Below the pieces are notes generated by a model. It was not told the origin of the DNA. It was given only the letters and a program-made list of their open reading frames with translations, and made no database searches. The translations under genes were made by a program, and so were the position numbers. Shown here in pieces: positions 7,031-56,614 of a stretch of DNA of 64,000 nt (within the stretch, counting starts at the first letter, position 1; each line of letters starts with the position of its first letter). Source of the DNA: an uncultured Gammaproteobacteria bacterium (GTDB lineage: Bacteria; Patescibacteriota; Microgenomatia; UBA8517); the NCBI GenBank assembly GCA_964540475.1, contig CAZIMC010000002.1, positions 111,551 to 175,550 of the forward strand. Reading direction: 5' to 3'.

Positions 7031-7243
7031 TTGCTGGGACAAAATATGAATAACAATAACAATCGAAACCTCAATGTCTTTGTCAAACCCAATGGTAACA
7101 GAGGATTGAATTATCGTTACCAGAAACTATCCACTAAAAGGGATAGGTCAGACTTTGCCAACTTTTGGTATTGGGCTCATGCCCTGCTTGACTCAATTGG
7201 CAGGGAAAGATTTGAGCCTAGTAGGCATGTTTATAAACTATGA
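7031..7243 (+). CDS. small Asn-rich hypothetical protein
   Basis: 70 aa. Its stop overlaps the start of the next gene (7240). Low complexity (NNNNNRN). Confidence 0.3.
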   Translation: MLGQNMNNNNNRNLNVFVKPNGNRGLNYRYQKLSTKRDRSDFANFWYWAHALLDSIGRERFEPSRHVYKL

Positions 7244-7776
7244 GAAGAATAAAACTAACCCAGAATAGATACGCTTTAGTGGATGACGAAGATTATGATT
7301 ATTTGAGCCAATACAAATGGGCTTATAACCGAAATAGGGGTTATGCATTTCGAAATTTACCCAGAGGTAAGGGTATACGCAAATCAGTATATATGCATAG
7401 AGAGATTATTAGGGCTTTGCCTGGTCAAGAAGTAGACCACATAAATAATATCAAGTTAGACAACCGTAAAAAAAATTTAAGAATATGTTCGCACATAGAA
7501 AATCAAAGAAACCTACCCCTATCAAGAAATACATCTGGTTATAGAGGAGTCTCCTGGTATAAGCCTACAGGCAAGTGGAGAGCAACTATAAAAGTGAACA
7601 AGAAATTTAAGCATTTAGGATTATTTGAAAACATAATTGATGCAGCAAAGGCATTCGACAGGGCAGCAAAAATTTACCACGGCGGTTATGCAAGGTTAAA
7701 CTTTGGTCAAAGACAAGAATATGCTATTACGTCTTATCTGACCTATGTTAATGGTTTATCAGCATTAGGTAGCTAA
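7240..7776 (+). CDS. HNH endonuclease fused to AP2 DNA-binding domain (phage-type homing endonuclease)
   Basis: HNH_3 motif VDHINNIKLDNRKKNLRICSHIENQRN. AP2 domain YRGVSWYKPTGKWRATIKVNKKFKHLGLFENIIDAAKAFDRAAKIYHG. Confidence 0.8.
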   Translation: MRRIKLTQNRYALVDDEDYDYLSQYKWAYNRNRGYAFRNLPRGKGIRKSVYMHREIIRALPGQEVDHINNIKLDNRKKNLRICSHIENQRNLPLSRNTSGYRGVSWYKPTGKWRATIKVNKKFKHLGLFENIIDAAKAFDRAAKIYHGGYARLNFGQRQEYAITSYLTYVNGLSALGS

Positions 7777-7823
7777 CCAGACTAGCCTTATGTGATGTAA
7801 GGCCTTAATATCAATAAAAAATT

Positions 7824-8066
7824 ATGAAAAGAGTGATGGAACCGAAATTATTATTCCGATATTTGGATAATGAAGATAGCGAAACTCGCCTTAAAACCGC
7901 ATATTGGAGGATATTTCGACAGGCACGAAAGAACTTAATTCGAAGAAAGAAAATGTTGGGGATAGATTATCTCCATACATATGAACTAATACCCGTGAAG
8001 AAAATAAAAATAAGAATAATTAACCCTGTTTTATACGACAGGGACAAAATAAGAATTTATGGATAA
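7824..8066 (+). CDS. small basic protein, possible recombination directionality factor
   Basis: 80 aa, Arg/Lys-rich. Lies immediately upstream of, and overlaps by 8 bp, the serine recombinase gene. Confidence 0.35.
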   Translation: MKRVMEPKLLFRYLDNEDSETRLKTAYWRIFRQARKNLIRRKKMLGIDYLHTYELIPVKKIKIRIINPVLYDRDKIRIYG

Positions 8067-9669
8067 TCATCTATCAAATGTATCGGGTTACTATGCCCGT
8101 GTTTCAACAGGCAGGCAGGAAAACGAAGAAACAATAGAGTCCCAGAAAGCAGAAATTAAGGAAAGAATAAAAAAGGATAATAATTATATTTCCCCTGAAC
8201 ATGAATTCTTTGATGACGGATGGACTGGAACAATACTAGCCAGACCTGGACTCGATGCCTTAAGAGATACAGTAAAGCGAAAAGAGATTAAGTATTTATA
8301 TGTTTACGATTTAGGTCGATTGAGCCGAGATTTTACTTATCAGTTATTGCTTCTAAAAGAGTTTGAGGACGAAGGGGTAAAGGTAATATCGCTACACGAT
8401 ATTAACCCTGAGAATGGTGAGCAAAACTTTATGCGTAATATCATGGGTGCCTTCCACGATTATGAACGTATCAAAATTGCGGAACGGTTCAGGCGAGGTA
8501 AATTGCATAAGGCAAAGAATGGCCTTCTAATCAATGGTCAAGGACTATACGGTTATACCTACATAAAAAAGACAGATAATAAACCACCCAAAATTGTGCT
8601 AAATGCAAAAGAAGCAGAGGTGGTGAAACTAATTTTCAATTGGTTAGGTAATGAAGGATATTCCATTAAGGAAATTGTCAGAAAGCTTTACGAGAAGGGA
8701 ATACAGCCGAGAAAGAACAAAAGCGAGTTTTGGAGTACAGGACCAATTCTAAGGCTTCTTCGGTGTGACTCTTATATTACAGGGGTGATTTACTATAACA
8801 AATCAGAAGCGATTGAAACTAAAGTACCTCGAAAAGAAGAAAAGTACAGGAAGATAAAAAAGGGGAGCAGACGGGTAAGGCCAAGGGCAGAATGGTATCC
8901 CTACAAAGTACCGAAAATCCTAGATGATTGGGATTTATTCAACCGAGTCCAAAAGATATTGGACAACAATCGAAGGCATGGACCGAGAAGAAAATCTTAT
9001 GACTATTTGTTATCAGGTCTAATATTTTGTGAGTGTGGTCAAAGGCGGGCAGGAAATGGGAAGAATAACGGGCATTACTATTATCGGTGTACTGACAGAA
9101 TTCTCAGGCATCCCTTACCTCCTGAATGTAAATCACCGGCCTTAAATGCCAGAGTACTCGATAAAGTGTTTTGTGATGAGCTTACGAAATACCTCACAAA
9201 TTCCAAGAACATCAACGAGATTGCAGAAGACTACCTCAAAGCTCAAGCGGTTGATGAAAGCGAGGAAAGAGAAAAGCAAGCACACCTTCATAACATTTCA
9301 AAGCTTGAGGAAGAAGAAAGACGCTGTATCAGGCTTCATGTTGAGGGAGAAATTGAGTTCGAGGAATTTAAGGAACTAAAAAGTGATATAAACAAACGAA
9401 GAAAGGATGAAGAAAACGAGCTAAAACGACTAAATGAGCTAACAAAGGATATAAATATCGATAACGTTGAGCTACAAGAATTCTGCCAAGAGGTGAAAGA
9501 AGTGTTACAGAGCCTCAATTACTCAAGTAAGTCTTTGTTAATTAGAGACGTAATTGATAAAATAGTCATGAAAGGAACAACAAATGAGGTTGAAGTTATG
9601 GGGCATATACCCATAAATCACCTAAATATCGGGTATGAACTTATCAGTAGGAATAGTGGGCCTACCTAA
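8059..9669 (+). CDS. large serine recombinase (integrase)
   Basis: N-terminal resolvase catalytic domain (YARVSTGRQENEE with the catalytic Ser region). Central recombinase domain. Zn-ribbon (CECG...C..C). C-terminal coiled coil. 536 aa. Confidence 0.9.
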   Translation: MDNHLSNVSGYYARVSTGRQENEETIESQKAEIKERIKKDNNYISPEHEFFDDGWTGTILARPGLDALRDTVKRKEIKYLYVYDLGRLSRDFTYQLLLLKEFEDEGVKVISLHDINPENGEQNFMRNIMGAFHDYERIKIAERFRRGKLHKAKNGLLINGQGLYGYTYIKKTDNKPPKIVLNAKEAEVVKLIFNWLGNEGYSIKEIVRKLYEKGIQPRKNKSEFWSTGPILRLLRCDSYITGVIYYNKSEAIETKVPRKEEKYRKIKKGSRRVRPRAEWYPYKVPKILDDWDLFNRVQKILDNNRRHGPRRKSYDYLLSGLIFCECGQRRAGNGKNNGHYYYRCTDRILRHPLPPECKSPALNARVLDKVFCDELTKYLTNSKNINEIAEDYLKAQAVDESEEREKQAHLHNISKLEEEERRCIRLHVEGEIEFEEFKELKSDINKRRKDEENELKRLNELTKDINIDNVELQEFCQEVKEVLQSLNYSSKSLLIRDVIDKIVMKGTTNEVEVMGHIPINHLNIGYELISRNSGPT

Positions 9670-14213: not shown

Positions 14214-14642
14214 TTAGACAACTAACTGCGATTCAAGTTGTGTCCTAATCCTGCCTCGGGATCCTGGCGGGATACTTTTACAGGTAAAGCGAATCAAAGC
14301 TTGCTTGGCTGTTCGTAAATCTGCATTTGTAGTGTGGTACTCCTCAATGATTGGTAACCAGAGAATCTTATTGTTGAAACATTTTATAACTGTATCAAGA
14401 AACGCTGATGTTAATTCTTGCGGTATTTCCTCCCCCTGGCCATAAGAATCTGGCAGAACACTTCTTCGTGCATGAGTAACCAGGGCAGAAGCCATGGGGG
14501 TTTCGTAATCAATCCCGGGTTCTTTGGTTAGCTTAACATTCCTCCCTAGCATTAAATTTTTATACAAAGCTACACTGAAATCTGGTGGTAATACAGTAGA
14601 AATGGCTGCAGCTTGTGCGTATGGGTTACCTGTGTCCCCCAA
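14214..14642 (-). CDS. hypothetical protein; possibly the frameshifted C-terminal continuation of the upstream HExxH gene
   Basis: 142-aa ORF that starts only at a TTG. Different frame from the 14570-15628 ORF and overlaps it. Confidence 0.35.
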   Translation of the reverse strand: MGDTGNPYAQAAAISTVLPPDFSVALYKNLMLGRNVKLTKEPGIDYETPMASALVTHARRSVLPDSYGQGEEIPQELTSAFLDTVIKCFNNKILWLPIIEEYHTTNADLRTAKQALIRFTCKSIPPGSRGRIRTQLESQLVV

Positions 14643-15628
14643 GACCGAATGGCTTGTTGGGCAATTGCTAAAATTTGGCGTCTTTCCAGGTCAACCGCGG
14701 ATATTTTCATCAAAGTTTTATAATGACGGGCAATTTGCTCATCTTCCCGGAAAGTGTTTGCTGGGAAGTAAATTGCGTTGATAATATTGACCAATGCAAA
14801 ATTGATATCTTGAGAATCTGGACTTTGCAGCAGATTAACTAGGGGAAACTCCTTGCACCATAAATATGCAGGTAGCTCAATTCTCATTTCGCCTCGAGCA
14901 GTGTGAAGAATGCCTTTAAGCATTTTTTCATTTTCTTCCAAATCACCGGGCTGTATTGCCTCATTTTCTACTGTTCTTAATATTTCAGGTTTATCAATAA
15001 AGTTACTGACTCCGTAATCTTTGTAGTCGTATCCCATGGCCTGTTGCCAAACGTGTATGTCTTCGTGCCAAACGGTTGTTTGATATTCTTTCCGCCTTTG
15101 GACAACCGGCATTCTCCCGAGTTCAGTAGCGAAAAGACCAATAAAACCCCGCGGTCGGGTTTTACGAGTATGTTTCTTGCCAAATGAGTACTCTAATATT
15201 TTATCGAATTCAGTGCCGTCGGCTACCAGTCCTACCGAGAACAAACTCCACTCAAACTCAACTTTTCTTGGGTCTAAATCTAACTCACCTTCGCTGGTAA
15301 ATTTGATGGCACTCAACAGGTTTTTCTTAACCTCGATAGGATTTCTCCCCATTTTTGCTTGGCAAATTGCCCTTCTGTTCATTAAATTCCAGGTTTTCAT
15401 AAGTCCATTGACCAGAAGAAATGACCGTTGCCATTCGGTTAATTCACCCAACTCGGGAGTTGATGAGACCAAGCGTTCGGCCAATTCGTTTAAGGATGGA
15501 ATAAAGGGATAATTGTGAATATGCTTAAATGCAAGATCTTTCCCTGAAAGAAACATTTTTGCAGCAATATGGAACGTTTTTAGAGTTTGAGCTGGTGTTG
15601 GCACTTGCTCTGGAGCTCGCTCAATCAT
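14570..15628 (-). CDS. hypothetical protein with HExxHxxQQ (Zn-metallopeptidase-like) motif
   Basis: 352 aa. Contains WHEDIHVWQQ. Otherwise unrecognised. Its 3' end overlaps the next ORF by 73 nt in another frame. Confidence 0.5.
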   Translation of the reverse strand: MIERAPEQVPTPAQTLKTFHIAAKMFLSGKDLAFKHIHNYPFIPSLNELAERLVSSTPELGELTEWQRSFLLVNGLMKTWNLMNRRAICQAKMGRNPIEVKKNLLSAIKFTSEGELDLDPRKVEFEWSLFSVGLVADGTEFDKILEYSFGKKHTRKTRPRGFIGLFATELGRMPVVQRRKEYQTTVWHEDIHVWQQAMGYDYKDYGVSNFIDKPEILRTVENEAIQPGDLEENEKMLKGILHTARGEMRIELPAYLWCKEFPLVNLLQSPDSQDINFALVNIINAIYFPANTFREDEQIARHYKTLMKISAVDLERRQILAIAQQAIRSWGTQVTHTHKLQPFLLYYHQISV

Positions 15629-15703
15629 GTTAGTAGGAAATTATAACACCAATAAAAAGAACTACTATAAACAATATTTAAATTGATATATATTGTCTAG
15701 AAT

Positions 15704-16747
15704 ATGGCAGGGACTGAAAGAGATGATGTGGGCCGCGGGGAAATTCTCGGTGGCATACTCGCTGGGAGTTCAGAACGTAGTGGTGAGTATGCGGTTGTCA
15801 AAAATTATCCTCACGAAATGGTTTTGGGGACAAACATACGAGACAAAAATGAGGAGTTTGTAAGAAGGTTAGCCAAAAGCATAATTGCACAAGGCCAGAT
15901 ACAAGAGTGTACAGGTGACACTCTGCCAGATGGAAGAACAAGAGTTTGGGCAGGTCAACATAGGTTTTGGGCTGTTGAAATGATCAACCAGTTAGTGAAG
16001 GAGCATAATATTCAAAACCCTGATAATATTTTGCCCCTTACCAAGCTTCGCGTTCGCGTTTGGCCAATCGAGTTTACAGAAGATCAGATTTTAGAAGTAC
16101 AGATAGCAGAAAACTTGCACGAAAAAATGAACCCAGAAGACGAGGCTGAGGCAATTAGTGCAATTTACAGGTTATATGAGGCGAGGATAGGAGGTGCGGC
16201 GAGTGTAGCGGATTTTGCAAGAAGGGTGGGGCTGGGCGAAAGTAAGGTGCGAAATGCCGTGTGGTTTATGGGACTTGAGCCAAAAGTAAGAGAGGCTGTT
16301 GGTCGCGGTGTGCTTTTGTATAGTATTGCCATTTTGCTCAGAAGGGTTCCCCCGGAGAAACAGTTCCCTTTGGCTACACGGGCAGTTACCGGAAATCTCG
16401 ACCGCGAATCTGTAGAGATTTTGATTAGACAAACTTTGGGGGATAACGGTGCTATTGAAATGTTCACGGATCTAGTAAGGGCTCAGTTAGATGAGCAGAA
16501 TTTTACTATTGCATATAGAAACGCGGCAGACCGAGTAGCAAAAGAAGCGTCTGGTTATTTCAAGCGTATACTTCTACTTATCAACAGAGCTGATTATTCG
16601 GAAAGAATAAAACTCACGGAGCCAATAAGGGATATACTAGCTATGTTTATATTTGAAGCCCAGCAGTTCGAAAAGATATTAATGGAAATTGCCCCGCAAG
16701 TGCACCAAACTTTGTCTGTAAGGGTAGAAGAACTTGCGAATCAGTAG
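15704..16747 (+). CDS. ParB/Srx-like nuclease-domain protein with HTH (orphan ParB-like)
   Basis: ParB box-like VWAGQHRFWA. IAENLHEKMNPEDEAEAISAIYRL matches the ParB ENLQR..L.P.EEA region. HTH-like FARRVGLGESKVRNAV. No adjacent parA. Confidence 0.65.
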   Translation: MAGTERDDVGRGEILGGILAGSSERSGEYAVVKNYPHEMVLGTNIRDKNEEFVRRLAKSIIAQGQIQECTGDTLPDGRTRVWAGQHRFWAVEMINQLVKEHNIQNPDNILPLTKLRVRVWPIEFTEDQILEVQIAENLHEKMNPEDEAEAISAIYRLYEARIGGAASVADFARRVGLGESKVRNAVWFMGLEPKVREAVGRGVLLYSIAILLRRVPPEKQFPLATRAVTGNLDRESVEILIRQTLGDNGAIEMFTDLVRAQLDEQNFTIAYRNAADRVAKEASGYFKRILLLINRADYSERIKLTEPIRDILAMFIFEAQQFEKILMEIAPQVHQTLSVRVEELANQ

Positions 16748-16750
16748 TCC

Positions 16751-17482
16751 CTAATTTTTAAGTGCCTGTGTTGACTCGAGGATTTTCTCTAAGTTTCCGT
16801 CCACTATTGCTTCCAGATTGCCAAACGATTTACCAATCCGGTGATCAGTCACGCGGTCTTGCGGGAAATTGTATGTTCTAATTTTTTCAGAGCGCATGCC
16901 GCGCCCAATTGCGGAACGGTAACCTGCAATGGTTCGCATTTTTTCTTCCTCCTGCTTTTCCCAGAGCTTGGAGCGAAGTAGATTCATGGCAATTTCGCGA
17001 TTTCTTTCCTGAAAACGCTCTTCCTGGGATTGCACAACAATGCCTGTAGGTTTATGTTTAAGCCGAACGGCAGTTGAAACCTTTTGAACGTTTTGCCCAC
17101 CTTGAGAACTTGCCCTGAAAAAATCCCACTCAAGATCTGCCGGGTTAACTTGTACTTCAGAAGCTTTTATTTCAGGAAGGACCGCAACAGTTGCGGTTGA
17201 GGTATGAATTCTTCCGCGTTTTTCCGTTGCTGGCACTCTTTGGACCCTATGAACTCCCGACTCGTTTTTAAGACTTTCAAAAACGTCAAATCCAGTAATC
17301 CTTAGTGTAAACTCATCAACCGGGGAAACTTTCCAATTCTTTTTTGTGCCAAATCTTAGATACATGCGAAGAAGATCTGTGGCCCAATTTTTTGCCTCGT
17401 CTCCGCCTGTTGCACCACGAACTTCGAGATAGATTGTCTGATTGGAGTTGGAGTAATTGGAAGAATTATATTGGTAATTCAT
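16751..17482 (-). CDS. prfA: peptide chain release factor 1 lacking the N-terminal domain 1
   Basis: PAT tripeptide (RVPATEKRGRIHTS), which is RF1-specific. GGQ motif (SSQGGQNVQKV). Only 243 aa. Alignment starts at about E. coli RF1 residue 105. Confidence 0.8.
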   Translation of the reverse strand: MNYQYNSSNYSNSNQTIYLEVRGATGGDEAKNWATDLLRMYLRFGTKKNWKVSPVDEFTLRITGFDVFESLKNESGVHRVQRVPATEKRGRIHTSTATVAVLPEIKASEVQVNPADLEWDFFRASSQGGQNVQKVSTAVRLKHKPTGIVVQSQEERFQERNREIAMNLLRSKLWEKQEEEKMRTIAGYRSAIGRGMRSEKIRTYNFPQDRVTDHRIGKSFGNLEAIVDGNLEKILESTQALKN

Positions 17483-17511
17483 AGGACGGGGAATGCTGAA
17501 TAACCACTCAA

Positions 17512-17823
17512 TTATTTCTTTTGTGTTCTTAACTCAGCCAATGACTCAGGTCTTTCCATTTCTTCCTGAATTCTTTTTTGCCTCTTAAGTTTCCTTTTCT
17601 CAGCCTTCGAAAGTACTTTTTTGGCAGCCCCCTCCTGCCTTGCCTTAAATGCATCTACGCGTCCTGCTATGTCTAAAAACTTCATTTGTCCGGTGTAAAA
17701 CGGGTGGCAATTGTAACAAACCTCAACGGTTATTTCAGGGAATGTAGCACCCATGGTGAAGCTGTTACCGCAGGCGCAAGTAACTTTTGCCGAAGGATAC
17801 CATTTGGGGTGAATCGCTTTCAT
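17512..17823 (-). CDS. rpmE: 50S ribosomal protein L31 with Lys-rich C-terminal extension
   Basis: MKAIHPKWY...CACGN...CYNCHPFYTG. Start codon verified at 17821-17823. Confidence 0.8.
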   Translation of the reverse strand: MKAIHPKWYPSAKVTCACGNSFTMGATFPEITVEVCYNCHPFYTGQMKFLDIAGRVDAFKARQEGAAKKVLSKAEKRKLKRQKRIQEEMERPESLAELRTQKK

Positions 17824-17842: not shown

Positions 17843-18796
17843 TTAAACCTCAGGCTCAACAGGCTTAAATAGATTTCCCATTTTGCCTTTGAATTCAGCG
17901 ATAAATACTCCAGTAACGATAATAATGGCGCCAATTACAAAGGGTGCAGTTATTTTTTCTCCAAGCCATAAAACTGCCAAAGGAGTTGAAAATATCGGGT
18001 AAAGATAGGAAAACACGGAAGCATCACCCACTTCAATGGTTTTCTGGGCTTTGTTAAATAGATAGTATGCTAAGTTACCGGACAGAAATGCCATGTAAAA
18101 AACCCCTAGATGGTAACTTATAGGCATGACTGTTACTGTCTGGATAAATTGTGCGTAGCTGCTTGTTGACAAGCTTACTATCAAAAAAGTTAAAAATCCA
18201 ACAATAAACGAAAGACTGACGAGCGTAGATGGGTTTACGCCATTTCGAAGAAGCCGTTTAGCTAAAAGTGTTGGCAGGATATTTGCGACTATGTAAAGAA
18301 ATATTAATATGTTTCCTGAAAACCTAAGCTCTCCATTGCCGTTTAAAAAAAGCGGCTCGAATACTGTAAATAGAGTTCCCAATAGGGCAATGCTCATGCC
18401 AATTTTTTCCCGTTTAGTAACATGCTCGTGTAAGAAGTATGCCCCTGCTGTTGAAGTTAAAAGAGGAACTGCCAGGGTGATAATTGTCATCTCTAGAACT
18501 GTTGTGTTTTGAAGACCGAAGAAAAGAAGCCCCAGCGAGACCGCAGAACTAAATAAAGCGTGTACAAAGAGAAATAGCTTATATTTGTGTTCTTTGGGTA
18601 ATTTAAAACCATGTAACATGAAAGTTATTAACCCAACGATTGCAGATAAGCCAAAGCGGTATGTTAAGAAGGGGATAGCATCAATTCCACCCAAGGTATA
18701 TTTAATTACCGGACTTGCAATACCCCAAATGGCCGTTACTAGAAGAAGTATTGCATATGCTTTAAGTCGGGAAGATTGGGGCAAAATCGATTTCAT
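17843..18796 (-). CDS. EamA/DMT-superfamily transporter
   Basis: 317 aa. About 10 TM helices in two EamA-like halves. Confidence 0.75.
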   Translation of the reverse strand: MKSILPQSSRLKAYAILLLVTAIWGIASPVIKYTLGGIDAIPFLTYRFGLSAIVGLITFMLHGFKLPKEHKYKLFLFVHALFSSAVSLGLLFFGLQNTTVLEMTIITLAVPLLTSTAGAYFLHEHVTKREKIGMSIALLGTLFTVFEPLFLNGNGELRFSGNILIFLYIVANILPTLLAKRLLRNGVNPSTLVSLSFIVGFLTFLIVSLSTSSYAQFIQTVTVMPISYHLGVFYMAFLSGNLAYYLFNKAQKTIEVGDASVFSYLYPIFSTPLAVLWLGEKITAPFVIGAIIIVTGVFIAEFKGKMGNLFKPVEPEV

Positions 18797-19698
18797 GACG
18801 ATTCAATTAATCGATCTAAGCCGAAAGCAAAGCCAACTGCAGGAATCTGTTTTCCGGCAAACATGCCAATTAAGTTGTCATATCTTCCGCCCCCTCCAAC
18901 AGATAAGTCTTCAGGTTTACCGTTTGGTTTAAGCTCGAATATTGTGCTTGTATAATAGTCTAATCCTCTTGCTAGGGTGGGATCGTAGAAGAAATCAAAA
19001 CCCTCCTTGAGCGAATATTTGTCTTTGAGAATCTCAAATATATTATTCAAATGGGCTGTCTTGGGGGTATCATCGATTTTATCGATTAAACTTGTATCCT
19101 CATTAGAATAACCTTTATCAATTAACTCTTTTTTTACTCCGTCTTTGCCGATTTTATATATCTTATCTATTGCACGTACAAAATCGGGTGTCATATTGGC
19201 AAAGTTGGCTCTATCATTTATTGCCATTTTGGCGGAAGTTAATCCTAGTTTTCTAGCTGCTGTAACTGCAGCAGCTATGACCTTCGCATCCTCGTCAACT
19301 AAATCGCTACCTACAATGTCAAAATCAAACTGTGTGAATTCACGGAAACGGCCACGCTGCGGATTTTCACCTCGGAATACTTGGCCAACTTGATATCTTG
19401 AAAACGAAGGTGACAAAAGATTCTGGTTGTTGGCAATAAAACGGGCCAGGGAAACAGTTAAGTCGTACCGTAAAGCCAGCTCGCGGCCCCCCTTATCCAT
19501 AAATTTATAAATAAGTTTTTCCTCTTCGCCGTATTTCCCAAGCAAAGTTTCTGCAAATTCGACAGTTGGTGTTTCAAGAGGAGTAAAGCCAAAATTTTCT
19601 AAAACGTCTGCTATTTTATTGATAGTCTCACGGCGTTTTTTTGCCAGACTGGGCAAAATATCCCTAAATCCTTTTGGTGTTGGCGGGCCCTTTTTCAT
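18793..19698 (-). CDS. hisS: histidyl-tRNA synthetase-like class II core without anticodon-binding domain
   Basis: Motif 1/2 region (FRDILP...ALRYDLTVSLARF...FRGENPQRGRFREFTQFDFDIVG). HisRS motifs RGLDYYT and GGGRYD. Ends at GFAFGLDRLIE after 301 aa. Confidence 0.65.
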   Translation of the reverse strand: MKKGPPTPKGFRDILPSLAKKRRETINKIADVLENFGFTPLETPTVEFAETLLGKYGEEEKLIYKFMDKGGRELALRYDLTVSLARFIANNQNLLSPSFSRYQVGQVFRGENPQRGRFREFTQFDFDIVGSDLVDEDAKVIAAAVTAARKLGLTSAKMAINDRANFANMTPDFVRAIDKIYKIGKDGVKKELIDKGYSNEDTSLIDKIDDTPKTAHLNNIFEILKDKYSLKEGFDFFYDPTLARGLDYYTSTIFELKPNGKPEDLSVGGGGRYDNLIGMFAGKQIPAVGFAFGLDRLIESS

Positions 19699-23006: not shown

Positions 23007-23567
23007 TTAGTTTCCCCTTTTCTTTCTTCGCTCAAACCGTACTGTGAAATCCTCTAATATGTCCGTTTCCTTGTAATATGTATATCCCCATTCCGAAGGC
23101 AGCTCATTTGCCTGATAAATATCAACTTCGCTCCTAAGATCCGTTTTTCTAAGTTTGCTAATTAATTCCCTTAATATTCTTTTTTCGACCTGGGGATCAG
23201 TGTGTGGCCTAGAGTGGAGCAATAAACTGCGTACCATAATACTTCCTTCAGCATCTATTAATCGTTCATCGAAATTTAACTGCCCGTAACAGTAATCCAG
23301 ATTATTGAGATTAAGATCAGCAGTTATTGCGTCATACATTTCTTGGTGTCGTCTGGCATTTGAGAAAAACCATTTAGAAAAGCCAGTATTGTCACTAAAG
23401 TGTCCGACGAACAAATAAGGTAATTTACCGTTTCTGGCAGCAGCGTTTCTTGCTAGATCGTAAATTGATGTTTGTGTTAGCTCATCAGTGTAGAACACCT
23501 TCACTGCGTGCCAGTCACTATCAAAACCGAAAATGTGTGTTTTAACTTCTGTTTCTTTTATTGGCAT
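23007..23567 (-). CDS. hypothetical protein
   Basis: 186 aa from the ATG at 23567; the track's longer ORF runs into the tRNA. No recognised motif. Confidence 0.45.
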   Translation of the reverse strand: MPIKETEVKTHIFGFDSDWHAVKVFYTDELTQTSIYDLARNAAARNGKLPYLFVGHFSDNTGFSKWFFSNARRHQEMYDAITADLNLNNLDYCYGQLNFDERLIDAEGSIMVRSLLLHSRPHTDPQVEKRILRELISKLRKTDLRSEVDIYQANELPSEWGYTYYKETDILEDFTVRFERRKKRGN

Positions 23568-23619
23568 AAATAATTGGGGCAAGTAGTGCTTGCACTGAGC
23601 AAGCAAGGGCGTCGAAGTG

Positions 23620-23704
23620 TGCCGAGGGAGGGAGTCGAACCCACATGGAGTGTTATCTCCGCAGGTTTTTGAAACCTGTGCGTCTGCCATTCCGCCACCT
23701 CGGC
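23620..23704 (-). tRNA. tRNA-Leu (anticodon CAA), type II with long variable arm; CCA not encoded
   Basis: Reverse-complement reads GCCGAGGTGGCGGAATGG...CAGGT-TTCAAAA-ACCTG...long arm...GGGTTCGACTCCCTCCCTCGGCA. The 7-bp acceptor stem pairs perfectly. Confidence 0.8.
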
Positions 23705-23918
23705 TCGTCAAAACTCGCTACACTTTTCGCAAAACGCTAACGCCTTTTGCCTTACCGTTACGCAGTTTCTCCTCTCGAAATTCCTTAAGGAATTTCGGTA
23801 AAACAAAACTAGGACACAGCTATATTATACTATTTGTAAGGTAGATGGCCAAGCTCATAGGTTATTTGGCAAATTCATCGTGCGGTTTAGACAAAAATGC
23901 GGTAAAATAGCTTCACAT

Positions 23919-34464: not shown

Positions 34465-35421
34465 ATGGCTGCCCAAACCGAATCTATCAACGGCGAAATT
34501 GGAAAAAGGATTGGAGAATTCCTTGAATACCTTCAGGTTGAGCGCGGCGCTTCTCCCCTGACCTTGCGTAATTACAGACATTATTTAACGCGTTTTGTAA
34601 ATTGGTTGCAAAAAGAAGGCATCCGCAGTAGTCTCGAAGATATAAACCAGGAAATAATAAGATCCTTCAGGGTATACCTATCAAATCTCCCAGATGGTAA
34701 GGGAGGAAAACTAGGAAGAAGAACACAAAGTTATCACGCAATTGCCCTTAGAAGTTTTCTTAAATGGTTAATTAAGAACGACTACAAGGTTATGGCTCCA
34801 GATAAAATTGATCTGCCGAAAATTAACGAAAGGCAAGTGAAATTTTTAAACGGTGAGCAAGTAGATAGACTTCTAAATGCCCCCACTCTTTCGACCATCC
34901 AGGGAAAGCGGGATAAGGCAATCTTAGAAGTTTTCTTCTCAACGGGATTGCGGGTTAGTGAGTTAACCAGGCTGGATCGTGACAAAGTCGATCTGGGAAG
35001 GCGCGAATTCGGGATTATTGGTAAAGGCGGACATGCGCGAGTAGTTTTTCTTTCGGCGCGTGCCTCCGATTGGCTAAAAGTTTATTTAGATGCAAGAAAA
35101 GATAAATATAAGCCAATTTTTATTAGACATAAGGGTAAAATCGGCCCAACCACCCCAGATGAAAAAATGCGTCTCACCCCCCGTTCTGTTCAGCGTATGA
35201 TAAAAAATTATGTCAGGAAAGTTAAGCTTCCTGTTGAGGCAACCCCGCATGTTTTGCGGCATTCATTTGCAACAGATTTACTTATGGCTGGGGCTGATAT
35301 AAGAAGTGTGCAGGAGATGCTCGGGCACAAAAACATATCAACTACTCAAATTTACACACATGTAACCAACAAACAACTTAAAGACGTTCATTCGGCTTTC
35401 CACGGCAAGGGCGGAAGTTGA
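34465..35421 (+). CDS. xerC: tyrosine site-specific recombinase XerC/XerD family
   Basis: N-terminal SAM-like domain (LEYLQVERGASPLTLRNYRHYLTRFVNWL). Catalytic RHxxR...Y box: HVLRHSFATDLLMAGADIRSVQEMLGHKNISTTQIYTHV. Confidence 0.85.
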   Translation: MAAQTESINGEIGKRIGEFLEYLQVERGASPLTLRNYRHYLTRFVNWLQKEGIRSSLEDINQEIIRSFRVYLSNLPDGKGGKLGRRTQSYHAIALRSFLKWLIKNDYKVMAPDKIDLPKINERQVKFLNGEQVDRLLNAPTLSTIQGKRDKAILEVFFSTGLRVSELTRLDRDKVDLGRREFGIIGKGGHARVVFLSARASDWLKVYLDARKDKYKPIFIRHKGKIGPTTPDEKMRLTPRSVQRMIKNYVRKVKLPVEATPHVLRHSFATDLLMAGADIRSVQEMLGHKNISTTQIYTHVTNKQLKDVHSAFHGKGGS

Positions 35422-50783: not shown

Positions 50784-51560
50784 ATGGAATATTTCTTATT
50801 CGCAGTATTAGGTCTCGTAGTTGGCTCATTTATAGCTGCTCTAACCTACCGTTTGCCTAGAAATATTTCAATTGCAAAAGGCCGGTCAAGATGCAATTTC
50901 TGTAAAAGCCAAATTGCGTGGTATGACAATGTCCCCCTTATTTCCTTTTTCATTCTTGGAGGAAGATGCAGAAGTTGTAAAAAAAGTATCTCACTACGCT
51001 ACCCAATCATCGAAGCTTTGACTGCAGCGACTTTTTTGCTAACACCAGTTTTTTACCCTCACTTAACAAAAAACTTAAACTTTCTTTTCAGTACTTTTGC
51101 ACCACTTTCATTGGCTTTATTGTTAGTTGTCTTTTCAGTCCTAATCGCAATATTTGTTATAGATTTGGAGCATCAAATAATTCCCGACCTGCTTACCTTC
51201 ACTCTCCTGGGTATACTGGTATTTTATCTTTTACTTATTTCATATCCGGATCTTTTCCTTAGCTTTTTCGCTGGTTTATTGTCTGCTTTGCTGCTTCTGG
51301 CAATTCACATGCTTACTAAGGGGCGTGGTATGGGGTTAGGGGACGTAAAGTTTGCAATTTTTGGTGGAATGTTTCTTGGGTATCCCCTATTTTTGGTCTG
51401 GCTGATGGGAAGTTTTGTCTTGGGAGCAATTGTTGGAGTTATATTGATACTAATTGGAAGAGCAAGTTTTGGTAAACAAATTGCTTTCGGGCCTTTCCTT
51501 GCCCTTTCCTTGATTTTGACCGCCCTTTTTGGGAATATGGTACTTAAGCTTTTCGTATAG
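50784..51560 (+). CDS. pilD: prepilin peptidase (A24 family) PilD
   Basis: N-terminal Zn-binding CNFC...CRSC. Polytopic. Catalytic Asp regions (IPDLL; GLGDVKF). Confidence 0.85.
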   Translation: MEYFLFAVLGLVVGSFIAALTYRLPRNISIAKGRSRCNFCKSQIAWYDNVPLISFFILGGRCRSCKKSISLRYPIIEALTAATFLLTPVFYPHLTKNLNFLFSTFAPLSLALLLVVFSVLIAIFVIDLEHQIIPDLLTFTLLGILVFYLLLISYPDLFLSFFAGLLSALLLLAIHMLTKGRGMGLGDVKFAIFGGMFLGYPLFLVWLMGSFVLGAIVGVILILIGRASFGKQIAFGPFLALSLILTALFGNMVLKLFV

Positions 51561-51565
51561 CAAAA

Positions 51566-52117
51566 ATGGGAAAAATTATAAAATCCAGGGAGACTGTAGT
51601 TTTTCTTATAACTATCGGGGTAATTTTTCTTCTCTCATATGTAAATATATTGGCAAGCTTCAGGCGCGAGCGGGATTATAGAAGGCGGGAAGATTTAATC
51701 AGTATGGTTAATGCTCTAAACACCTTCCACAATCATTACAAGTTCTACCCCCCATCATCTGAAAATGGCGAAGTGATCGCTTGTTTGGGTGAAAGTTCGC
51801 GAATTGACAGATATAATTTAATTTATGAAAATCCCGTAGCCTGCCGGTGGGGTGTTGATGGCTTTTCACTGGACCCTGATGATCCGGAAACTACCCCCAT
51901 AATGGCCTCGCTCCCGCAAGATCCAAAGACAAATGAAGGTTATAAGTACCGTTACGTTTCAAATGGACAGGAGTATCAAATTTACGCTTCATACGAGGGT
52001 TCCAATGAGCCGGATATTATCCCCGAGCTTCTAGGCTCTCAAATTAACTGTGGTGTTGCCTATTGCAATACTGGAAAAGCAAGCCCTCAAACGGCACTTG
52101 AAAAGCCATTAAAATAG
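51566..52117 (+). CDS. pilin-like protein with non-canonical N-terminus (no G-FTLIE signal)
   Basis: N-terminal TM. Shares the post-helix pseudopilin motif R(D/E)..RR.DL...V.AL..........YP with the downstream pilins. Confidence 0.45.
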   Translation: MGKIIKSRETVVFLITIGVIFLLSYVNILASFRRERDYRRREDLISMVNALNTFHNHYKFYPPSSENGEVIACLGESSRIDRYNLIYENPVACRWGVDGFSLDPDDPETTPIMASLPQDPKTNEGYKYRYVSNGQEYQIYASYEGSNEPDIIPELLGSQINCGVAYCNTGKASPQTALEKPLK

Positions 52118-52135
52118 GAGCAAAATGGAACAAGC

Positions 52136-52615
52136 ATGCCCACCTCGAAAAAAAACGCTCTAGGCTTTACTTTAATTGAGATATTGATTGTAATAATGCT
52201 TATTGGCATTTTGTCGGTTATTGGTGTTTATGGCTTCACGTCATCCCAGCAACGTGTTAGAGATGCTACGAGGAAAGCGGATCTGAAAAATCTCCAGACT
52301 GCATTACGGTTGTATTATAATGACCGTGGTCGATATCCTGCCAGCAGCGGGGGGCAAATTAACGCTTGCGGATCATCCTGTAACAGTCCATGCAACTGGG
52401 GTTCGGAGTGGCTTTGCGGTTCCACTTCATATATGAGTACCCTTCCCAAAGATCCGGTAAGCCAATCAGCCGACGGATATGTTTACGTATATACAGTTAA
52501 TGCTTCAGACTCCGATCTTTATACACTTTCTACTTGTCTTGAAAATAAAAACGATTCGCACGGTATAGTCGATACGGGTTGTAATTCCGGACTCAAATTC
52601 GAAGTAAAACCATAA
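52136..52615 (+). CDS. pilin-like protein (GspG/pseudopilin type), Cys-rich
   Basis: LGFTLIEILIVIMLIG signal. RDATRKADLKNLQTALRLYYNDRGRYP. Confidence 0.75.
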   Translation: MPTSKKNALGFTLIEILIVIMLIGILSVIGVYGFTSSQQRVRDATRKADLKNLQTALRLYYNDRGRYPASSGGQINACGSSCNSPCNWGSEWLCGSTSYMSTLPKDPVSQSADGYVYVYTVNASDSDLYTLSTCLENKNDSHGIVDTGCNSGLKFEVKP

Positions 52616-53121
52616 TGAAAAAAGTTACTAAATTTAACCGCATAAAGTCCATTGGTTTCTCCTTAATTGAGCTGCTGGTTGTAATCTCAATAATAGGTGC
52701 TTTAGCCGCACTTTCTGTTGTTTCTTACTCAGCAGTTCAAAAGCAGGCTCGTGATACACAACGTAAAAACGATCTTAAGCACTATCAGAGCTTATTAATA
52801 CAGTTTGCAAGTGAAAACCGTGGATTTTACCCGTCATCTTCCGGTGGTGTTGTTAATCTTGATGTTATGTGTTCAAGTGTTTTACTTAATACATACACTT
52901 CTTCTTGCCCCACCGACCCGGGAAGTGGCGCGCGTGCGTATTCGTATATGCCCAACGTTTCAGGCGTAGCAGGTTATCCTCCAACCTCAACAAGATACAC
53001 TCTTTATATTCATGGCGGATTGGAGGCAGAAACTGATAAAACGTTCGTGATTTGCTCAAATGGATTTAGCGGAATTGTTAATAATACCTGGTCGGTGGTT
53101 AGCACAATATGCAGTCCATAA
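52615..53121 (+). CDS. pilin-like protein; C-terminal 98 aa identical to the 53598 gene
   Basis: IGFSLIELLVVISIIG signal. The 3' 294 nt lie inside the 301-bp direct repeat. Confidence 0.75.
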   Translation: MKKVTKFNRIKSIGFSLIELLVVISIIGALAALSVVSYSAVQKQARDTQRKNDLKHYQSLLIQFASENRGFYPSSSGGVVNLDVMCSSVLLNTYTSSCPTDPGSGARAYSYMPNVSGVAGYPPTSTRYTLYIHGGLEAETDKTFVICSNGFSGIVNNTWSVVSTICSP

Positions 53122-53128
53122 TGATAAA
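52828..53128 (+). repeat. 301-bp perfect direct repeat, copy 1 (3' two-thirds of a pilin gene plus start of the next)
   Basis: Base-for-base identical to 53796-54096 when compared by eye. Offset 968 bp. Confidence 0.9.
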
Positions 53129-53588
53129 TGATTCAGGTTTTACACTAATTGAGCTACTTGTTGCAATTTCAATCATTGCTGTTCTCATCGCGCTTTCTGC
53201 CTTTGGTTTTCAGGGCGTATTTGAAAATTCAAGAGATACCCAGAGGAAAAGTGACCTCAAGCAGTATCAAGCCGCTCTTGAAAACTATGCAAACAAAAAC
53301 AACGGGCGTTATCCCCTTTTGGACAATGGAGGTAGTATCACCGCCTTTTGTACAGAACTGGGTTTGGGTACGAATACATTGGGAACGGCAACAGCATGTC
53401 CGGAAGATCCCCTCTTTGGTCAAGAATGGTACTACTATAATTACAACTCGGATGCTGCCGGCACTTATTACACACTGTCTACCAAGCTGGAGGGAACCAG
53501 TACCAGCACTTTTTTTGTTGTTTGCTCAAACGGCAAATCCGGTAGTCATCCAATTGCAAGTTTTAATACCCAACACTGCCCGTTTTAG
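53109..53588 (+). CDS. pilin-like protein
   Basis: SGFTLIELLVAISIIAVLIA signal. Its first 20 nt (MQSIMI) lie within repeat copy 1. Confidence 0.75.
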   Translation: MQSIMINDSGFTLIELLVAISIIAVLIALSAFGFQGVFENSRDTQRKSDLKQYQAALENYANKNNGRYPLLDNGGSITAFCTELGLGTNTLGTATACPEDPLFGQEWYYYNYNSDAAGTYYTLSTKLEGTSTSTFFVVCSNGKSGSHPIASFNTQHCPF

Positions 53589-53597
53589 TCACTCAAT

Positions 53598-54089
53598 ATG
53601 CATTTAAGTAAAAGCACTCGGGGATTTACACTAATTGAGATCCTGGTGGCAGTTAGTATAATTGGCATCTTGATTCTTCTGGGGGGAATCAGGTTTGGCG
53701 ATCTGTTTCAAAACTCCCGTGATGCACAGAGGAGAAGCGATATGAAGCAATACCAGACGGCTCTTGAAAATTTTGCAAATGAAAATGCAAACATGTACCC
53801 GTCATCTTCCGGTGGTGTTGTTAATCTTGATGTTATGTGTTCAAGTGTTTTACTTAATACATACACTTCTTCTTGCCCCACCGACCCGGGAAGTGGCGCG
53901 CGTGCGTATTCGTATATGCCCAACGTTTCAGGCGTAGCAGGTTATCCTCCAACCTCAACAAGATACACTCTTTATATTCATGGCGGATTGGAGGCAGAAA
54001 CTGATAAAACGTTCGTGATTTGCTCAAATGGATTTAGCGGAATTGTTAATAATACCTGGTCGGTGGTTAGCACAATATGCAGTCCATAA
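53598..54089 (+). CDS. pilin-like protein; C-terminal 98 aa identical to the 52615 gene
   Basis: RGFTLIEILVAVSIIG signal. The 3' part lies within repeat copy 2. Confidence 0.75.
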   Translation: MHLSKSTRGFTLIEILVAVSIIGILILLGGIRFGDLFQNSRDAQRRSDMKQYQTALENFANENANMYPSSSGGVVNLDVMCSSVLLNTYTSSCPTDPGSGARAYSYMPNVSGVAGYPPTSTRYTLYIHGGLEAETDKTFVICSNGFSGIVNNTWSVVSTICSP

Positions 54090-54096
54090 TGATAAA
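53796..54096 (+). repeat. 301-bp perfect direct repeat, copy 2
   Basis: Identical to 52828-53128. Confidence 0.9.
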
Positions 54097-54580
54097 GAGG
54101 GGTTTTACCTTAATTGAACTAATGATAGTTGTGTCAGTAATTGGCCTTGTCCTTTCTCTAACGGTTTTTGGGTTCCAGAGATCAAGAGCTTCTTCCCGCG
54201 ATGCTAAAAGAAAAGCAGACCTAGAGACTCTAAAGTCAGCTCTTGTTATTTATAAGGCAGATAATGGAGTTTACCCATCAACTGGTGGCGCCTGGTGGGG
54301 TGTAAGCGTTAACGGGGGCAGTAGGACAACAAGTGGCGCAAATGCGTATATCCCGGGTTTAACCCCGAATTATATCGGTGAACTTCCCACGGACCCGTTA
54401 GGTAATACCTCAGGATGGTCGGGATACCTATACAGATCAAACGGACAGCAATTTAAGATACTATCACACTCAACAGGACCAGAAAGTTTTCCCGCCGTTG
54501 GACAACCATATTACGACCCGATTCGTTCCACATGGGCTATTATGGTTTGTAGTGCTGAACCAGCGTGCAGTAACTGGTAA
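54077..54580 (+). CDS. pilin-like protein
   Basis: RGFTLIELMIVVSVIG signal. Starts MQSIMI, derived from repeat copy 2. Confidence 0.75.
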   Translation: MQSIMIKRGFTLIELMIVVSVIGLVLSLTVFGFQRSRASSRDAKRKADLETLKSALVIYKADNGVYPSTGGAWWGVSVNGGSRTTSGANAYIPGLTPNYIGELPTDPLGNTSGWSGYLYRSNGQQFKILSHSTGPESFPAVGQPYYDPIRSTWAIMVCSAEPACSNW

Positions 54581-54591
54581 TATTATCTTAT

Positions 54592-55098
54592 ATGAAAGAG
54601 CATACACAGCAAATTAATAGGTATCAGGGATTTACACTTATTGAACTACTTATTGTGGTTTCGATAATTGGGGTTGTGGTAACTTTGGCAGTATTTGGCT
54701 TGCAAGGGTCAAGAGTCTCAGCCCGCAATGCCAAACGATTGGCTGATTTGGAAACAATTAGGGCAGCTCTTGAAATTTATAAATCTGAAAACAATGCGTA
54801 TCCACCAATGGGCGCCTCACCTACTTGCAGTGGATGGAATATTAGCACCAATTCCAATTGGCTATATAATCTGACAACATTAACCAATAAGCCAGTTGAT
54901 CCGATAAATACCACTGTCAGCGGTTGCGATAACGGATTTTTTTACCGGTATGCCGCCTGTGGAACTGGGTACAAACTTCAGGTAAGGTTGGAGGGCGTAA
55001 GTACCGGCAGTACCTGCCCATCGTGTGGTGGTCACACAGGTGGTACGCAGGGCATTGCAGGGACCGGTGATTTTTGGCACTGTGTCACGAACCCGTAG
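54592..55098 (+). CDS. pilin-like protein
   Basis: QGFTLIELLIVVSIIG signal. ARNAKRLADLETIRAALEIY. Confidence 0.75.
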   Translation: MKEHTQQINRYQGFTLIELLIVVSIIGVVVTLAVFGLQGSRVSARNAKRLADLETIRAALEIYKSENNAYPPMGASPTCSGWNISTNSNWLYNLTTLTNKPVDPINTTVSGCDNGFFYRYAACGTGYKLQVRLEGVSTGSTCPSCGGHTGGTQGIAGTGDFWHCVTNP

Positions 55099-55116
55099 AT
55101 TTGCTATAGTTAGTAT

Positions 55117-55653
55117 ATGCCTTCCCGTGGATTCACACTTATAGAGCTTCTCGTCAGTATCGGAATTCTCATAAGCGTTTTCTCATTGGGCTTTGCCGGG
55201 TACAGGGATTATTCCAGACGGCAGGAAATGGCCTCCATATCGCGACAATTAAGAGCTGATCTTCGTTGGGCACAGTCGCTCGCACTTTCAGGGCATAAAC
55301 CTACTGCTGACTACTTAGGTGCTGCAACCAGTGTTTGTCAATCAGCTAATCCCTTAATTGGCTACAACCTTCAAAGCTCGGCAAATTCATACCGAATCAG
55401 GGCAGTCTGTAACCAAGCTGGGACTGCGCAATTTGTTATCATTAAAAATACAGCAGTCCCATCTTACTTTACGTTGACTGGAGGGTACAACGGAGGTTCA
55501 CCAGTAAACCCTAGCGGTTATTTTGTCTTTAAACCCTTGGGTCAAGGTACTAATCTTTCTCCGCAAGCTGCAGAGCGCTTTACCACCATAACGGATACAC
55601 GTTCTGGTGCGCAGGAAACAATCTTAATTACGTCATCCGGGGAGGTCAAATGA
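55117..55653 (+). CDS. minor pilin (GspH/FimT-like)
   Basis: RGFTLIELLVSIGIL signal. 178 aa. Confidence 0.65.
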   Translation: MPSRGFTLIELLVSIGILISVFSLGFAGYRDYSRRQEMASISRQLRADLRWAQSLALSGHKPTADYLGAATSVCQSANPLIGYNLQSSANSYRIRAVCNQAGTAQFVIIKNTAVPSYFTLTGGYNGGSPVNPSGYFVFKPLGQGTNLSPQAAERFTTITDTRSGAQETILITSSGEVK

Positions 55654-56126
55654 AAAAAGCGTTGAAAAGTGGTCAATCGCTTTTTGAAGTACTTGTTGCA
55701 GTTGGAGTAATGGCCCTACTTGTAGTTGGTCTTATAAATATGACAACTGTTTCAATAAAGAATTCTACTTACTCCAGGAATAAAACAGCATCAACACTTC
55801 GTTCACAAGAGTTGGCAGAATGGCTACGCGGGCAAAGAGACTCAACCGGTTGGGTAACATTCAGAAACAGGGTTAACTCCGCCAACCAGACTTTTTGTTT
55901 TGACAGTTTGGGTTGGACTAAAAACCGAGCATGTAACGCCACAGAATATATTGCAGGAACAATTTTTGTGAGACAAGCTGCCTTTACATGCTACACCGGA
56001 AATACTCTGGTTGCCTGCAACACAGCAGGGGTTGTTGATAGGATTAGAGCGGCAATAACAACAACCTGGACATCCGGTTCAACACACCAGTCTACCGTTA
56101 CAACTGAACTAACCGCATGGAGATGA
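55650..56126 (+). CDS. minor pilin (GspI-like)
   Basis: SGQSLFEVLVAVGVMALL class III signal with Glu+5. Confidence 0.6.
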   Translation: MKKALKSGQSLFEVLVAVGVMALLVVGLINMTTVSIKNSTYSRNKTASTLRSQELAEWLRGQRDSTGWVTFRNRVNSANQTFCFDSLGWTKNRACNATEYIAGTIFVRQAAFTCYTGNTLVACNTAGVVDRIRAAITTTWTSGSTHQSTVTTELTAWR

Positions 56127-56614
56127 AAAAATTAATTATTGGTTACACATTAATTGAGATTCTGGTTGTGCTTGGTATATTTGCTTTGCTTGCCACACTC
56201 TCTACCCAAGCCGTATTCCTTACCATCAGGAGCTCAAGAAAAAGCGAAGCTGCCATAAAAGTGCGTGAGAATTTAAATTACAGCATAATGGTAATGGAAA
56301 GAGAGATTAGAAATGCAAAAACGGTTATTGGGTGTACTGCTGATAGCAGGAGAGTTAACTATACAAACCTTAGCAATGTGACCTCATACTTCGCTTGTGA
56401 AACATCAAGCGGAAACACAACAGTTGCCTCTGGCTCATCGAGTATGCGCCTTACTGGTACTGAGGTCAACCTGACCTCCTGCTCATTTACCTGCAGTAAC
56501 GATGGTTCAGGTAACTTGCAATCAGTATCAATTAATCTAGTTGGCAGCCATACTACAATTGGCGGAACAGAAGGTGTTTCAATCCCCATGACCACTCAAG
56601 TTTTTATTAGATAA
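56117..56614 (+). CDS. minor pilin (GspJ/PilW-like)
   Basis: IGYTLIEILVVLGIFALL signal. Confidence 0.6.
   Translation: MEMKKLIIGYTLIEILVVLGIFALLATLSTQAVFLTIRSSRKSEAAIKVRENLNYSIMVMEREIRNAKTVIGCTADSRRVNYTNLSNVTSYFACETSSGNTTVASGSSSMRLTGTEVNLTSCSFTCSNDGSGNLQSVSINLVGSHTTIGGTEGVSIPMTTQVFIR

Follow-up and report, generated by a model that had tools for sequence, protein, structure and literature searches.

The DNA analyzed here (the window, meaning the whole stretch of 64,000 nucleotides) carries on its minus strand a shortened gene for peptide chain release factor 1 (RF1; prfA), located directly downstream of the gene for ribosomal protein L31 (rpmE). The prfA gene starts with ATG and ends with TAG at 16751-16753, and the stop codon of rpmE lies at 17512-17514. 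The features of the locus, all on the minus strand, are as follows, with the evidence in brackets.

16751..17482, minus strand: short prfA, encoding a 243-residue RF1 with domains 2, 3 and 4 only (ORF list, Pfam, NCBIfam, PDB alignment, AF2/Foldseek)
17441..17482, minus strand: leader of 14 residues, MNYQYNSSNYSNSN, low-complexity and rich in Asn, Tyr and Ser (aligns to no RF1)
17393..17416, minus strand: segment with the invariant residues G26, G27 and E29 (alignments of 31 and 57 sequences)
17312..17317, minus strand: junction between D56 and E57 of a 10-residue domain-2 deletion (gap in the PDB alignment)
17225..17233, minus strand: PxT tripeptide P84-A85-T86, the RF1-type "anticodon", codons CCA GCA ACG (sequence)
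17093..17101, minus strand: catalytic GGQ, G128-G129-Q130, in the context SSQGGQNVQKV, codons GGT GGG CAA (invariant in both alignments)
17483..17511, minus strand: spacer of 29 nt between rpmE and prfA (sequence)
17512..17823, minus strand: rpmE, L31 of 103 aa (Pfam Ribosomal_L31, 3-63/65; conserved upstream neighbour of prfA)
17534..17536, minus strand: in-frame TGA, within the 3' end of rpmE, that closes the prfA frame 18 codons before the ATG (translation)

The Pfam family PCRF matched the short RF1 over positions 97-194 of 194 only, and the RF-1 domain (PF00472) was complete (3-116/116, E=7.5e-37). Alignments to the NCBIfam prfA equivalogs began at model position 101 or 109 and ran to the end of the models. 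With 308.5 bits for NF001859 (cutoff 400) and 302.1 bits for TIGR00019 (cutoff 423.25), the protein missed both thresholds, a shortfall that we attribute to the missing domain 1. The other release factor models gave 208 bits for prfB (TIGR00020; cutoff 370), 64 for prfH (cutoff 166.65) and 50.8 for arfB (cutoff 100), and none of the NCBIfam models reached its own cutoff on this protein. When all PDB chains were searched with phmmer, residues 15-236 aligned with E. coli RF1 109-342 and residues 17-236 with T. maritima RF1 88-318 (E about 1e-57 to 1e-66 for RF1 chains and about 1e-41 for RF2). An earlier note on this DNA had placed the beginning of the ORF near residue 105 of E. coli RF1; the structural alignment starts at residue 109. 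The E. coli RF1 reference used for tblastn and for alignments agrees at every position with PDB 5j30_QY (residues 1-360). An AF2 model (pLDDT 69.5, low over residues 188-222) was of moderate quality and was used only for confirming the fold; Foldseek matched it to RF1/RF2 chains (E about 1e-17), with compact free or pre-accommodated forms giving the top TM-scores.

Compared with canonical RF1 (TIGR00019/NF001859; E. coli 2B3T, T. thermophilus 3D5A/4V63, T. maritima 1RQ0), domains 2-4 are 45% identical to E. coli, and the PxT and GGQ motifs, the switch loop, the decoding residues and the rpmE-prfA gene order are all as in the window. The window RF1 differs in lacking the whole of domain 1 (E. 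coli residues 1 to about 105), the part that ordinarily makes contact with RF3 and the base of the ribosomal stalk, and, in domain 2, a 10-residue hairpin (E. coli RF1 about 148-158). PAT and GGQ, both named in the earlier note, can be read directly in the ORF at residues 84-86 and 128-130. The tripeptide is PAT and not the SPF of RF2, and the flanking residues Q81, E87, R91, I92, H93 and T94 are conserved. P84, T86, E87, R91, H93 and T94 are invariant in alignments of 31 and 57 sequences, and the middle residue of PxT varies among relatives (A/V/S/T/I/M/E/L). Across 31 diverse relatives, 51 columns were invariant and included all decoding and catalytic residues. In the N-terminal part, these are G26, G27, E29, H78-R82, P84, T86, E87, G90-R91, H93-T96 and GGQ, followed in the switch loop and domain 4 by R189, G193, R197, E199, K200, R202-N205 and T212-R215. 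G26, G27 and E29 belong to the helix that reads U1 in T. thermophilus RF1-ribosome structures. The leader is variable, and orthologues carry 3-14 residues in its place (alignments, related loci). As judged at the sequence level, everything required for UAA/UAG recognition and for the hydrolysis of peptidyl-tRNA is intact and evolves under purifying selection.

The region upstream of the ATG offers no hidden N-terminus. The earlier note described rpmE as starting 30 bp upstream, which holds in plus-strand coordinates; biologically, rpmE ends there, at a gap of 29 nt. Between the TGA at 17534-17536 and the ATG there are at most 17 open codons, and these hold no ATG, GTG or TTG, so that a domain of ~105 residues could not be regained from any start codon. 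The claim that an upstream N-terminal exon has no room therefore stands, and no in-frame non-AUG start was found. In the L31 of the window, the Pfam model covers residues 3-63, and the C-terminal tail behind them, about 40 residues long, is rich in Lys, Arg and Glu; the L31 of a related locus (L081) has 101 aa.

Truncated ORFs are common in metagenome assemblies, and the short gene could in principle be a pseudogene, an assembly error or a gene with a mis-called start. Some database entries of the RF1 family are indeed faulty: two proteins considered as release factor fusions (P0121, 477 aa; P0124, 481 aa) were rejected as assembly artefacts in which about 120 residues are duplicated exactly within the protein. 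For the window RF1, such a truncation artefact is effectively refuted by the stop codon 18 codons upstream with rpmE immediately upstream, by an intact reading frame, by strong protein conservation with saturated dS, and by equal length in hundreds of independent assemblies. The best 120 relatives in a collection of 5.8 billion proteins are 230-261 aa long and 71-80% identical over 92-100% of the query. Those with names belong to Candidatus Woesebacteria or Patescibacteria, in line with the reduced-genome lineage proposed in the earlier note, and several sit on contigs of 0.75-0.95 Mb. NCBI names these relatives "peptide chain release factor-like protein". Woesebacteria orthologues showed dN of 0.13-0.22 at 74-84% protein identity; since dS was saturated, the dN/dS ratio of prfA is not computable and dN alone is given. 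The observation of an RF1 without domain 1 is confirmed as real, and the comparison with orthologues bears out that the short form is native.

To place the short form among its relatives, we compared RF1 N-termini across GTDB species, each represented by one genome in the scan; the 80 best RF1 loci were listed with organism names. The loci were classified by the coding length ahead of the conserved strand ILE(I/V)RAG(T/A)GGDEA, as follows.

Absent (N-terminus of 3-16 aa): the window, L001-L008 and L081 (Woesebacteria clade, 66-73% identical); separately L015, L026 and L075
Reduced (N-terminus of 56-83 aa): Curtissbacteria, Levyibacteria, WWE3, Paceibacteria, Kaiserbacteria and several unnamed MAGs
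Full (N-terminus of 101-117 aa): every non-CPR genome (Chloroflexota, Myxococcota, Eremiobacterota, Bacillota) and some CPR (Moranii-, Magasanik- and Peregrinibacteria; L037, L057, L065)

The reduced RF1s begin near E. coli residue 54, with roughly the first 50 residues missing; what remains of domain 1 is the long helix in its C-terminal half, the next helix and the connecting loop (DDPE in E. coli). In a rough neighbour-joining tree of the shared core, the two absent groups stood apart, each beside reduced forms, which argues for at least two complete losses of domain 1. Outside Patescibacteria, domain 1 was kept in all RF1 and RF2 examined. Two Patescibacteria MAGs (L018, L022) had RF1 frames that were broken under table 11 (ORFs of 82-101 aa), with tblastn matches running through; the probable cause is UGA recoding in these lineages or frameshifts in the assemblies.

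The gene order around the short RF1 was also conserved. One relative (GCA_040960375.1; 955-kb contig, 74% identity, RF1 of 233 aa) shares with the window a block of DnaB, a short HisRS-like protein, EamA, L31 and RF1, followed further on by HtrA, S41 peptidase, SSB, S6 and YchF, and L081 has the same rpmE-prfA arrangement. Directly upstream of RF1, rpmE was found in the full, reduced and absent classes (16-200 nt; spacers of 16-97 nt in the Woesebacteria clade) and also outside CPR, in Eremiobacterota, Kofleriaceae and Polyangia. The short gene therefore holds the ancestral position of prfA. Between RF1 and HtrA, the window has a 347-aa ParB-HTH-like gene (plus strand) and a 352-aa ORF of no family (minus strand) at 14570-16747; L081 has two different unannotated genes where this pair stands, probably an insertion. 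On the other side, the HisRS-like gene (18793-19698, minus strand) encodes just 301 aa, a class II catalytic core that has no anticodon-binding domain, and its TGA stop shares nucleotides with the ATG of the EamA transporter gene that follows. This short form appears conserved, since the L081 orthologue has 279 aa.

The only natural bacterial release factors without the N-terminal domain in a survey of release factor evolution are PrfH and ArfB (PMC6514570). With this precedent, and with the "release factor-like" label in NCBI, the window protein could be an accessory paralogue, that is, a PrfH/ArfB-like rescue or specialised factor, with a canonical full-length prfA elsewhere in the genome. 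We consider this unlikely. PrfH (RFH; TIGR03072) is comparable in its natural loss of domain 1 and in keeping a domain-2-like module and the GGQ, but its recognition region is divergent, its gene lies adjacent to RtcB and has a sporadic distribution with horizontal transfer, and its targets are damaged ribosomes. The window RF1, in contrast, has the canonical PxT with all decoding residues, L31 and a ParB-like gene (and no RtcB) as neighbours, and vertical inheritance, and scores 302-308 bits with the prfA models as opposed to 64 with prfH and 51 with arfB. ArfB, ICT1 and mtRF-R also combine a GGQ (RF-1) domain with the lack of domain 1; however, ArfB-type proteins are without the codon-recognition superdomain and have a C-terminal tail instead, whereas the window RF1 keeps domains 2 and 4, which Pfam likewise found present here, unlike in stand-alone GGQ proteins. 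The ancestral slot after rpmE also speaks against a paralogue, as do the reduced intermediates of sister lineages in the same slot and the fact that no assembly occurs twice among the 80 best RF1 loci listed. When the window was searched by tblastn with full-length E. coli RF1 and with the short RF1, no second release factor gene was found in the 64 kb covered, out of at least 218 kb for the whole contig.

We consider it probable instead that the protein is the orthologous, functional housekeeping UAA/UAG release factor of an ultra-small Patescibacterium of the Woesebacteria type, in which nothing of domain 1 is left. Stop codon usage is in line with such a role. The stops of the 71 long ORFs in the window were TAA in 33, TAG in 27 (38%) and TGA in 11, and UAA and UAG together make up about 85%. 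RF1 activity is needed here, since TAG ends 38% of the long ORFs. A TAG share of 38% is unusually high for a 41%-GC bacterium. With regard to TGA, YchF ends on this codon just where its C-terminal Pfam domain is complete, which indicates that TGA is a real stop in the window organism and that an RF2 is to be expected. There was no RF2 gene in the 64-kb window, and a consensus-like query for the RF2 of the window's clade returned only ordinary RF2s (Nitrospira, Ignavibacteria and similar).

Loss of domain 1 was also detected in RF2 of other Patescibacteria. A degenerate DNA pattern (GGQNVNK, 62 aa, WG) used on metagenome contigs gave 120 listed loci, almost all of them RF2. Among these, three RF2s were without domain 1 (L118, L165, L166; 232-242 aa) and nine were reduced (N-terminus of 55-88 residues, no frameshift site); none of these short or reduced forms came from the window's clade, but from Parcubacteria lineages and one Hainich groundwater organism, with an RluA-like protein that shares only 37% identity with that of the window. 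When the L118 RF2 was used as seed for a protein search, 119 of the 120 matches listed had 222-255 aa, and the named ones were Harrisonbacteria, Nomurabacteria or Parcubacteria. Overall, the domain-1-less RF2 families are 232-249 aa long with the SPF motif and go in NCBI under "PCRF domain-containing protein" or "release factor-like", and one cluster of reduced RF2s includes a Terrybacteria protein. In parallel with the window RF1, these Parcubacteria RF2s (Harrisonbacteria, Nomurabacteria) have lost domain 1 and, in domain 2, the same 10-residue hairpin, but they differ in their SPF motif, in the Patescibacteria lineages that carry them and in their prfB-ftsE-ftsX context. The +1 frameshift site of prfB is necessarily absent from every short or reduced RF2 seen. 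At one locus (L203, 9367-12332), a domain-1-less RF2 of 232 aa lies 1 nt past the stop of a 210-aa unannotated HExxH-type gene, and ftsE-ftsX come next.

It is also conceivable that the gene has been split, with a separate small helical protein supplying domain 1 in trans. The earlier note had pointed to this option, but we regard it as very unlikely. With E. coli RF1 as tblastn query, no domain-1-like ORF was found in the 64 kb covered, the best match (E=2.3) being at noise level. The ORF behind this match (142 aa, 14214-14642) was rejected as a stand-alone domain 1, as it has neither a Pfam family nor an orthologue in L081. The relatives show no conserved small ORF beside RF1, and the gene upstream of the short RF2 is the unrelated HExxH-type gene.

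The second deletion in the window RF1 can be followed across both factors. We measured it as the distance from GGDEA to HR(V/L)(Q/V)R, which is normally 62 residues and is 52 when the hairpin is deleted. The 10-residue deletion was found at the following frequencies.

RF1, domain 1 full: 0 of 37
RF1, domain 1 reduced: 12 of 26
RF1, domain 1 absent: 10 of 13
RF2, domain 1 full: 1 of 77
RF2, domain 1 reduced: 0 of 9
RF2, domain 1 absent: 3 of 3

These counts indicate that the same domain-2 hairpin was lost in parallel in RF1 and RF2, almost only where domain 1 is eroded. We infer that the hairpin (E. coli RF1 about 148-158) may work together with domain 1. Taken from the sequences compared, the phenomenon is clade-wide and graded (full, reduced, absent), has more than one origin, and also affects RF2 of other Patescibacteria.

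Experimental precedent for a release factor without domain 1 comes from engineered E. coli RF1 and RF2 that, like the window RF1, have domains 2-4 only (Mora et al. 2003). According to PMC1586002, which cites this work, these constructs retained codon-specific release in vitro, the truncated RF1 was functional in vivo, and stimulation by RF3 was lost, its action needing domain 1. Those were laboratory constructs in a host with RF3 and a normal ribosome, whereas the truncation in the window is natural, ancient and fixed clade-wide. On the ribosome, domain 1 touches the N-terminal domain (NTD) of L11 and forms a bridge to domain 3 of RF3 (PMC3677378). Judged from its sequence, the short RF1 would still recognise UAA and UAG with domains 2 and 4 by way of the PxT element, and its domain 3 would still bring the GGQ to the peptidyl-transferase centre, such that codon-specific release would be kept. 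Without domain 1, the bridge of L11-NTD, RF1 and RF3 would not form. Departure from the ribosome would then be either spontaneous or brought about by later recycling factors and not by RF3; in the second case, the short RF1 would leave during RRF/EF-G recycling. In the light of this published work, the altered termination recycling proposed in the earlier note is a reasonable expectation.

The loss of domain 1 can be envisaged as a stepwise erosion, from the full ~105 residues to a helical remnant of about 56-83 residues that begins near E. coli residue 54, and from there to nothing. Such erosion would have taken place more than once, also in the RF2 of other lineages, and would have been coupled to the loss of the 10-residue domain-2 hairpin. 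The absence of RF3 alone is insufficient as an explanation, since T. thermophilus and T. maritima have no RF3 and keep domain 1 (PMC3677378). The CPR ribosome, itself unusual, probably contributes through other features. With regard to L11, we found no rplK in the 1.76 Mb of loci examined for co-evolution of its N-terminal domain. On balance, we lean towards a wider reading, in which the three-domain protein would be the only RF1 of Woesebacteria-type Patescibacteria, acting with no RF3 and no contact between release factor and L11, and in which both class-I factors would have independently shed domain 1 together with one domain-2 hairpin across the radiation. This would amount to a remodelled, minimal cycle of termination and recycling on the CPR ribosome, with a hitherto unrecognised functional link between the hairpin and domain 1.

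No description of the RF1 truncation was found in searches of the open-access full-text literature on release factors and on CPR/Patescibacteria, and it is absent from an analysis of CPR ribosomes (PMC9297842), a Patescibacteria perspective and a survey of prfB frameshifting in 12,000 genomes. A natural three-domain housekeeping RF1, as part of a wider erosion of domain 1 in both factors, thus apparently has not been described before. That T. thermophilus and T. maritima retain domain 1 without RF3 raises the question of an RF3-independent role for this domain. The domain-1-free clade, together with the intermediates and the parallel RF2 forms, provides a comparative and biochemical system for the roles of domain 1, the L11 contact and RF3, in which the speed and accuracy of termination and the recycling of the factor can be addressed. 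Marker-gene and completeness pipelines may score the essential genes prfA and prfB as absent in these genomes, given the failed equivalog cutoffs and the "release factor-like" names. In addition, a naturally minimal RF1 of 230 aa could serve reconstituted translation systems.

Several other features of the window deserve mention. The only tRNA in the 64 kb is a tRNA-Leu(CAA) at 23619-23704 (minus strand), and a 234-aa ORF at 23007-23711 is probably not a gene, as it encloses this tRNA. An HNH/AP2-domain protein beside a large serine recombinase (7240-9669, plus strand) and a separate tyrosine integrase (34465-35421, plus strand) are mobile-element remnants in a small genome. At 50784-56614 (plus strand), ten tandem ORFs of 158-183 aa come after a prepilin peptidase gene (Peptidase_A24) and probably form an array of pilin-like paralogues.
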